Positions 17,423-18,528 of a stretch of 64,000 bases of DNA are shown piece after piece. Origin of the DNA: a virus; the IMG/VR virus record IMGVR_UViG_3300027821_000007, positions 1 through 64,000 of that record. One strand, given 5' to 3'. Position numbers and translations under genes: made by a program. The notes below the pieces were generated by a model. That model ran no database searches. It saw nothing but the letters and a program-made list of their open reading frames with translations, and was not told the DNA's origin. Every line of letters begins with the position of its first letter. The stretch's first letter is position 1.

Positions 17423-17875
17423 GTGGACCTTATTATCAAAGATGGCACCCTCGTGCCAATCGCGGCGATCACCCCAACCGCAGAACGTATCGCCAAAGGC
17501 GACGTCGTCGGACAACGCTCCCTCACTCCCGGCGTGCTCGAGCAACTCGCCGCCGCCGGCGACCTCGGCGAGAACGTCCCCGCCCTGGTCGCGGCCGCCG
17601 AATGGTTCATGGAACAGGCCGAGCTCTCGCAGGTGCGCGGGCGGATGGTGGTGAGCCAACTCATGACCAGGCTGCCGTCCTCGGCTCCGGCCGGTAAGAC
17701 GCAAGCCCGGCTGATGCTGCTGCGCTCTTACGACTGGCTCGGGCACGACGGCTGGAACGTGCTCTACGACGTGCTGGTGTGGAACAACCAACTCCGCGGG
17801 CCCGAGCGCCGGGCGATGTTCCGGATGGCGCTGCACGGCCTGTCCCAGGCGCTGGACGCAAAAAAACCCCGCTGA
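17423..17875 (+). CDS. hypothetical protein (150 aa)
   Basis: Divergent from the HTH gene; ends at a terminator. Confidence 0.65.
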   Translation: MDLIIKDGTLVPIAAITPTAERIAKGDVVGQRSLTPGVLEQLAAAGDLGENVPALVAAAEWFMEQAELSQVRGRMVVSQLMTRLPSSAPAGKTQARLMLLRSYDWLGHDGWNVLYDVLVWNNQLRGPERRAMFRMALHGLSQALDAKKPR

Positions 17876-17908
17876 GACCGAGTTCGTTAGAACGGTCTCA
17901 ACGGGGTT
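17860..17908 (-). terminator. intrinsic terminator for a leftward transcript
   Basis: AACCCCGUUGAGACCG...CGGUCUCAGCGGGG followed by a U-tract on the - strand. Confidence 0.7.
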
Positions 17909-17964
17909 AGGTGGTAATCAGAAGCGTAGATCGCGTTGGCAGATCAACGCTTCAATGGGGGTTT

Positions 17965-18029
17965 GGTTTCGACTGGCACGTGGGGGCACCAGCTCGTCTG
18001 CCTGCTTCCCATCAAGGGCAGCAGAAACC
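17965..18029 (-). ncRNA. hammerhead-like RNA (type III, core CAGACGA, NUH=GUU) inside the large ncRNA
   Basis: GGU-U-UCUGCUGCCC..GGGAAGCAGG-CAGACGA-GCUGG..CCAGUC-GAA-ACC. Confidence 0.55.
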
Positions 18030-18452
18030 TGGCCGCACCGCCAGGCGCCCGCCGGGGGCTAAGGCCCGGCGTAATGCAATTTGCCTGTGCAAGCACAGGC
18101 GTAGCTTTGCGGCACCTAACGGTGCGACCACCCGCCGTTCCCAGCTACCCGGATCATGCCTGGGCGGGGCACCTCCATCCTTGCGGTCGGAGGAATTTTC
18201 TAGGGGGAACGGCAAGCTGGCCAACCCATCGACCGCCCCGGGCCAAAAGCCAGGGCGCCGGCCGCGTGACTGGCAGCAGGACATTGCTACATGAGCGAGG
18301 ACATGCCGGTGGTCGCGGTATCGACGGATTGAAATTCTAGCTGACCAAATCTCCAAACCCCGGTGGCCTGGAGAACCTTTTCGGCGCCCCTTGCGGGGCA
18401 GCCTATCGGCACTAACGGGACCGATGGTCGACCGTTGATCAACTCTGATAAG

Positions 18453-18481
18453 GATATGGCGATTATGTAACGGTCCTTCAA
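18453..18481 (-). promoter_or_regulatory. putative promoter TTGAAG-N17-CATATC
   Basis: 17-nt spacing; shares 14 nt with the site at 7919-7947. Confidence 0.5.
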
Positions 18482-18495
18482 GGCTTTTTTGCAAC

Positions 18496-18528
18496 AAAAA
18501 ACGCCCCGCGAGGATCTCTCGCAGGGCG
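18496..18528 (-). terminator. intrinsic terminator after the 18534-19157 gene
   Basis: CGCCCUGCGAG..CUCGCGGGGCG followed by UUUUUU. Confidence 0.7.

Follow-up and report, generated by a model that had tools for sequence, protein, structure and literature searches.

Bacteria and phages have only a small number of large RNAs with complex conserved folds, namely rRNA, RNase P, group I and II introns, tmRNA, OLE, GOLLD, ROOL, raiA, and HEARO, and each new large ornate RNA so far has opened new biochemistry. ROOL and GOLLD are large ornate RNAs of phages and prophages with known structures (PMC12286853), and among small phage RNAs, hammerhead clusters flanking single genes and a few active variants of the hammerhead core have been documented (PMC3088659). 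Here, a stretch of 64,000 nucleotides (nt; "the window") was analyzed. It is the initial 64 kb of a phage contig from IMG/VR (IMGVR_UViG_3300027821_000007, phage G000) that is 91.5 kb long and has 62.5% G+C. Positions 18449-17860 on its minus strand are very probably a genuine gene of a new family of structured non-coding RNA (ncRNA). An unclassified large structured phage ncRNA had been proposed here from the letters of the window (the sequence-only reading), and the proposal is supported by ten members that share promoter, terminator, synteny, and covarying helices and match nothing in Rfam.

The RNA resembles ROOL and GOLLD in its length (600-900 nt), its many covarying helices and conserved loops, its phage-encoded nature, and its predicted stand-alone transcript, but it matched neither Rfam model at the gathering score or at E ≤ 10. 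While ROOL and GOLLD often lie near tRNA genes, ARAGORN found no tRNA and no tmRNA in the 64-kb window. The phage RNA also has, unlike ROOL and GOLLD, an obligate protein neighbor, referred to here as UpP, and its members belong to G+C-rich soil phages, a different host range. The Rfam search that had been suggested together with the original proposal matched no known family. With Rfam 15 at the gathering score the window gave no match, and a sensitive search of 17600-18800 at E ≤ 10 returned only terminator hairpins and other families without relevance. Models for hammerheads, ROOL, GOLLD, RNase P, tmRNA, and introns were absent from its hits, and neither the window nor seven homologous loci had a family at E ≤ 1. 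The Tas-like gene that had been noted about 1.5 kb from the RNA proved to be a true Tas gene (15352-16347; NF052498, 174.7 bits, above the NCBIfam cut-off), but its nearness is incidental. NF052498 was detected in G000 only and is absent from three phages that also carry the RNA (G001, G002, and G003), and since these near-complete relatives have the RNA without Tas, the RNA is unrelated to TIGR-Tas. The RNA might also have diverged from a known family (ROOL, GOLLD, RNase P, tmRNA, or an intron) or belong to TIGR-Tas as an accessory. Its ROOL/GOLLD-like size and phage location and the Tas gene nearby would fit, but against the Rfam, ARAGORN, and Tas results this explanation is largely refuted and of negligible probability. 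The case warns that a nearby Tas gene can be a coincidence.

The boundaries of the unit were as first described, with a terminator on either side, a promoter-like site, and no credible open reading frame (ORF) between them. The stop codon of the UpP gene (18534-18536) is directly followed by an intrinsic terminator at 18528-18502 on the minus strand, with an 11-bp stem of which 9 pairs are G-C and a T-run. A sigma-70-type promoter lies at 18482-18454 on the same strand, consisting of CTTGAA (18482-18477), N17, and CCATAT (18459-18454), and judging from these letters the ncRNA would start near 18449-18445. The predicted transcript of about 590 nt ends in an intrinsic terminator at 17907-17860 (minus strand) with a 15-bp stem, a 12-nt loop, and U7. 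All ten members have the promoter in the form (C/A/G)TTGA(A/T)-N16/17-(C/T)(C/T)ATAT, with hexamers and spacing kept and the letters of the spacer varying, and the 3' end of all nine complete members, including that of the window, is a G+C-rich hairpin followed by U4-U7. Because the RNA has its own conserved promoter of the host type, it should be made early by the host polymerase.

No coding signal was found in the unit. The coding pattern of the genome, with low G+C at second codon positions (GC2) and G+C at third positions (GC3) near 0.8, appeared in no frame of 17911-18530 and was evident in the flanking genes. Stop-to-stop frames occur on both strands of the unit, as expected at 62% G+C, and no ORF was conserved among the homologues. 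Translated matches within a near-identical trio of members covered every frame on both strands, and those between subgroups were only short and fell inside the most conserved RNA domain.

The RNA might instead be no independent gene and derive from the UpP mRNA, either as a long structured 3' untranslated region or as a processing fragment. This would agree with its constant place directly after UpP on the same strand, and the hairpin that follows UpP lacks a U-run in the homologous fragments L036, L037, and L039, so that read-through from UpP is possible there. However, the promoter between UpP and the RNA is conserved in hexamers and spacing in 10/10 members, and in the window a strong terminator precedes it, which makes this origin highly improbable.

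The collection of homologues and the covariation analysis, likewise suggested at the outset, yielded nine homologues besides the window copy and a covariation signal in the central domain that was reached in 0 of 500 shuffles. The homologues comprise three IMG/VR phages of 98-105 kb (G001, G002, and G003) and six metagenome fragments (L035, L036, L037, which equals L038, L039, L040, and L044), of which L040 is truncated on the 3' side. The ten distinct members range from 594 to 894 nt, and the RNA of the window is the shortest known. G001 to G003 were reached in IMG/VR with a DNA pattern derived from repeated leader elements of the phage, which matched 22 contigs; G002 corresponds to IMGVR_UViG_3300036846_001176 (L046). 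Among the other contigs matched by this pattern, seven that were checked lacked the RNA, and five that were rechecked had neither a true leader nor UpP. BLAST gave a collinear match in G003, where the upstream protein is 48% identical to that of the window and the promoter hexamers are the same. The fragments were obtained by scanning JGI metagenome contigs with a protein alignment of UpP, and every fragment with enough DNA downstream of UpP contained a homologous unit. R1, a covariance model made from the central domain, scored the window copy with 77.6 bits (E 6e-20) and the ten members with 32-119 bits, and it recovered two members outside its seed, G002 with 49.8 and G001 with 32.5 bits. 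The RNA stands directly after the UpP gene in 10/10 loci, and the order of UpP, RNA, and a convergent gene of 150 amino acids (aa) is constant where enough sequence is present.

Further searches gave no additional members. blastn against phage GenBank records found no match, locus searches in IMG/VR with single proteins (UpP, VRR-NUC, TerL) returned nothing useful, and an alignment search re-found only G003. Patterns of the RNA run against IMG/VR led again to G002 and G003 only; four IMG/VR records in total carry the RNA. One genome per GTDB species contained neither the RNA pattern nor UpP and hence gave no prophage copy or clue to the host. Carriers of the family form a small group, phages of 90-105 kb from environmental metagenomes.

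The best-aligned part of the RNA, with strong covariation, is the central Px domain of about 120 nt (18337-18217, minus strand), which every member has and which combines helices Px and Py with the Pz and L2 hairpins. It forms a three-way junction, the closing helix of which has a sarcin-ricin-type GAA/AGUA internal loop in six members. Covariation was assessed on a plain MAFFT alignment of the ten sequences (A10) with a structure derived from L039 and 500 shuffles. Paired cells made up 75.9% compared to 61.4% in the shuffles, and 23 of 30 pairs changed on both sides compared to 14.9, neither value being reached in any of the 500 shuffles; the covariation score was 0.47 versus 0.23. As a control, sliding the partners by one to three columns lowered the pairing to 26-43%. 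In Px2, Py, and the L2 hairpin, 86-92% of cells were paired. The single strands ACCAC(AC) and CAGUCA are conserved and unpaired, and the L2 loop reads CUUKUGG in the family and CUUUUGG in the window. A candidate pseudoknot between the CCAC(A) strand (18308-18313) and (U)GUGG of the L2 loop (18242-18248, minus strand) is suggestive only. It would have 5 bp in four members and 4 bp in three others, one of them G001 with CCAU/AUGG, whereas the window, G002, and G003 allow just 3 bp.

Downstream of Px lie two further domains. The P4 domain (18217-18130, minus strand) is closed by GCUUGCCGUUCCC/GGGAACGGCGGGU and contains an inner GCAA hairpin; equivalents were found in L035-L044 and G001, seven homologues in total, and the domain is absent from G002 and G003. 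As the P4 domain is optional and other members have large insertions, the RNA of the window represents a minimal form. The P5 domain (18129-18031, minus strand) is closed by GGUCGCACCG/CGGUGCGGCC and has a hairpin with a CUUG loop inside, so that both tetraloop hairpins described in the sequence-only reading are present. The basal 8 bp of P5 were paired in 80/80 cells across the ten members with up to five pair types per position, and independently of the hand alignment, P5 had a pair probability of at least 0.94 in 8/10 single-sequence ensembles.

Toward the 5' end, the predicted helix P1b pairs AGUUGAUCAA (18444-18435, minus strand) with UUGGUCAGCU (18348-18339) at a pair probability of 0.83 and closes the 5' domain. 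Its counterparts are GCGAUCAAG/CUUGAUAGC in G003, GUGUUUGA/UCAAACAC in L040, UCCGAA/UUCGGA in L036 and L037, and GUCUGA/UCAGAC in L039. Within this domain, the L1 hairpin (18425-18405, minus strand) has a conserved 9-nt loop, CCCGUUAGU, and its stem was paired in 48/50 cells across ten members with 2-3 pair types per position; the loop reads CCCGUYAGY in 6/10 members and CCGGUWAGM in 3/10. A local hairpin, UCUCCAGGCC/GGGUUUGGAGA (18374-18350, minus strand), had a pair probability of 0.994 and is homologous to CAGGA-ACGGC-UCCUG hairpins in L036, L037, and L039. The putative helix P1 pairs AUCAGAG (18449-18443, minus strand) with UUCUGAU (17923-17917) and probably brings the ends of the RNA together. 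At the 3' end, a hairpin was predicted 3' of the hammerhead-like junction (GAAGCGU...ACGCUUC, 17953-17921, minus strand), with a hairpin in the same place in all complete homologues, and a conserved tail motif, CCACCUAACCCC (17914-17903, minus strand), corresponds to CCACCUAUCCCC just before the terminator in L036, L037, and L039.

Four long-range helices had been proposed in the sequence-only reading, and all four complementarities exist letter for letter, but only two of them held as helices. P4 (GCCGUUCCC/GGGAACGGC) had a pair probability of 0.997 and counterparts in the seven homologues with the domain. P1 (AUCAGA/UCUGAU) had a probability of 0.62 and counterparts in three homologues (L036, L037, and L039), which read AUCCGA/UCGGAU or GUCUGA/UCGGAU with compensatory or wobble changes; no clear counterpart was found in G002 or G003. 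In contrast, P2 (GGGGUUUGG/CCAAACCCC) reached a probability of only 0.003, as its 5' strand is occupied by the conserved hairpin at 18374-18350, and P3 (GCGACCACC/GGUGGUCGC) one of 0.000, in competition with the covarying helices Py and P5. The 5' strand of P3 is divided between Py and the conserved ACCAC strand, and its 3' strand forms the 5' side of P5. Both P2 and P3 were thus rejected because conserved local helices replace them. A P3 pairing considered in G003 was overturned by P5, and a pairing of 5'-GAUCAA with the 3' tail was discarded as a chance effect of the GAUC palindrome.

The hammerhead-like domain at 18029-17965 (minus strand) is a conserved three-way junction of stem III (GGU/ACC), stem I, CAGACGA, stem II, and GAA that occurs in all nine complete members. 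Stem I was paired in 44/45 cells and stem II in 39/40, with many pair types. The likeness to a hammerhead stood with regard to topology but not beyond it. As in the type III hammerheads of phage intergenic regions (Perreault et al. 2011, PMC3088659), the strands follow the order III-I-II, an A-U pair (U18027-A17967) closes stem III, an unpaired U or C (U18026 in the window) precedes stem I, stem II starts with G...C, and GAA follows; many copies between early phage genes are a further likeness. The type III hammerheads, however, have CUGANGA, whereas the window RNA has CAGACGA and the leader elements of the phage have CAGAGA. The invariant core C3 U4 G5 A6 N7 G8 A9 is not present in the window, which has A at position 4 and retains GAA (G12 A13 A14). 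Homologous junctions read CAGAGA, CAGUCGA, CAGGAGA, CAGAAGA, and, in G001, CUGAGAA; position 4 was A and not U in 9/9 RNA copies with the CAG form, and position 6 varied between A, U, and G. Stem III has just 3 bp in the window, L037, and L039. None of the Rfam hammerhead models matched 17600-18800 at E ≤ 10 or the whole window at E ≤ 1, and the homologous loci gave no hammerhead match either. By its letters, the junction fails membership among hammerheads on a defining feature.

The leader elements show the same topology in multiple copies. The window holds at least 15 of them, at 3178-6678 and 19162-21931 on the minus strand, each composed of GCCUUUC, stem I, GCAGAGAG, stem II, and CGAAAGGC and located right before a start codon. 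RNAalifold assigned them a type III hammerhead topology, with 12/17 pairs covarying. A covariance model built from 15 leader copies (R2) identified 14, 6, 17, and 12 copies at E ≤ 1e-5 in G000, G001, G002, and G003, respectively, all on the strand of the RNA and clustered upstream of it in all four phages, and a leader element precedes the UpP gene in every locus. Across the four phages, CAGAGA and GAA of the leaders are nearly invariant, the loop of stem II starts with CUG, the stems covary, and most copies lack core position 7. The junction of the RNA shares topology, strand, and the letters CAG..GA and GAA with the leaders of the same phages. It differs from them in that its stem III is GGU/ACC without a Shine-Dalgarno sequence, its stems are longer, and no start codon follows, in agreement with the initial observation that the hammerhead-like copy precedes no gene (only a 3-codon frame comes after 18029-17965). 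With R2, the junctions of relatives scored 13-19 bits compared to 30-68 bits for leaders, and the junction of the window did not reach E ≤ 1. A conserved small ORF after the junction was also considered and rejected.

These observations bear on whether the RNA processes itself. Such an RNA would carry an active variant hammerhead that cuts after U18026, so that the transcript divides into a 5' part (about 424 nt) and a 3' part (about 166 nt), and the leader copies would likewise cut early polycistronic mRNAs just before their ribosome-binding sites, which is compatible with a genuine ncRNA gene. Hammerhead clusters and active core variants known from phages (PMC3088659) give catalysis by the junction a precedent. 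The type III topology with the A-U pair closing stem III, the unpaired U, stem I, CAGACGA, a stem II starting with G...C, and GAA would suit such an activity, as would the almost invariant CAGAGA and GAA of leaders whose stems covary. Nevertheless, self-processing is considered unlikely given A at position 4 in all CAG-form copies, the loss of position 7 in most leaders, the variable position 6 of the large RNA together with CUGAGAA in G001, the lack of any Rfam hammerhead score at the thresholds above, and the 3-bp stem III.

The likeness of the junction to the leaders could also point to a decoy or regulator, in which the RNA junction titrates or recruits a factor that recognizes the 6-17 leader junctions hiding ribosome-binding sites of early genes. 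In all four phages, the RNA lies at the 3' end of a same-strand cluster of leader-preceded genes, and its junction has the same CAG..GA and GAA letters. A single site, however, cannot titrate a factor with 6-17 targets elsewhere, R2 scored the junction poorly in relatives and window alike, as given above, and the remaining 500 nt of conserved structure would be left unexplained. A decoy role is therefore regarded as improbable.

The surroundings of the unit have been weighed with respect to a role in replication as well. The RNA lies in a DNA-metabolism region with a primase/helicase (8368-10554), an Erf-like protein (730-1578), and a VRR-NUC nuclease (16365-16832) as neighbors, and it might act as a primer or as an origin-activating transcript in the manner of RNA II for ColE1, which is similar in size. 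On the other hand, no iterons, AT-rich tract, or repeats adjoin the unit, the RNA ends at a strong terminator, and its conserved loops and covarying stems point to a tertiary fold and not to an R-loop primer; replication is accordingly given little chance.

As a structured ncRNA with its own gene, the RNA folds into a chain of domains, starting with the 5' domain and its 9-nt-loop hairpin, followed by Px, the optional P4, P5, the three-way junction, the 3' hairpin, and the tail motif. The folded RNA may serve as a scaffold or partner of the adjacent UpP during early infection, in which the junction would be a structural hub and not an efficient ribozyme. This partnership is proposed because UpP is the only constant partner of the RNA, and it is put forward tentatively, as the most likely of several possible roles. 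A more far-reaching version, held to be rather unlikely, combines a new large ornate RNA that forms a defined particle with UpP, as a protein of novel fold, or a higher-order RNA assembly like those of ROOL and GOLLD with an active hammerhead variant shared with the 6-17 leaders per genome. A hammerhead with A at position 4 and without position 7 would then cut early transcripts before each ribosome-binding site and unmask the site.

The UpP gene (19154-18534, minus strand; about 206 aa) was assigned its start from comparison. The 280-aa ORF at 18534-19376 is too long, as homologues and the leader at 19162-19223 place the start at an ATG near 19154. A profile search found 49 relatives, all unnamed, and the AlphaFold model reached a predicted local distance difference test score (pLDDT) of 92. 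Pfam, PHROGs, and NCBIfam assigned no family to UpP, its model had no Foldseek match in PDB or BFVD, the protein atlas gave none, and the best Z in VIA-align was 5.4 and within noise.

Several points weigh against the interpretation as a new ncRNA that acts with UpP. The existence of a transcript, the position of its ends, and any processing are predictions. Only ten members from one phage lineage are known, so the link between UpP and the RNA is inseparable from shared ancestry, and structure comparisons of UpP revealed no recognizable RNA-binding fold. The tables for P5, L1, and the junction stems rest on strands aligned by hand with pairs checked by script; MAFFT alignments of the full-length RNAs and of the P5 domain were too poor for pair counting. 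The folding z-score of the unit was -7.4 with and -6.3 without the terminator, compared to -1.4 for the Tas gene, but the UpP coding region (18540-19140; 20 shuffles) also reached -5.8, and the score is therefore not specific.

The new RNA combines clear boundaries, a minimal member of 590 nt, optional domains, the UpP neighbor, and a junction resembling a diverged hammerhead. Owing to these boundaries, the minimal member, the obligate neighbor, and the junction, it is directly accessible to experiment.

On the opposite strand, a convergent gene of 150 aa (17423-17875, plus strand) has its stop codon inside the shared terminator and matched no family. Since this conserved gene runs convergently, the terminator of the RNA probably serves both directions. 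Its product shares 57-58% identity with the counterparts from G002 and G003 and 35% with that from G001 and is always encoded on the strand opposite the RNA; a minus-strand ORF at 17363-17836 was dismissed as spurious, as the plus-strand protein is conserved in G001-G003. In G002, about 0.5 kb of the reverse strand (around 2000-2520) consists almost entirely of NNGCC pentanucleotide units and sits between the RNA terminator and the convergent gene, a tract without a counterpart in the window. The Tas gene of the window is accompanied by arrays at 11555-14444 (plus strand), built from 37-nt units of CGGCTACGCTC, 9-10 nt, CGGTTC, and again 9-10 nt, which is typical of a dual-repeat TIGR array.

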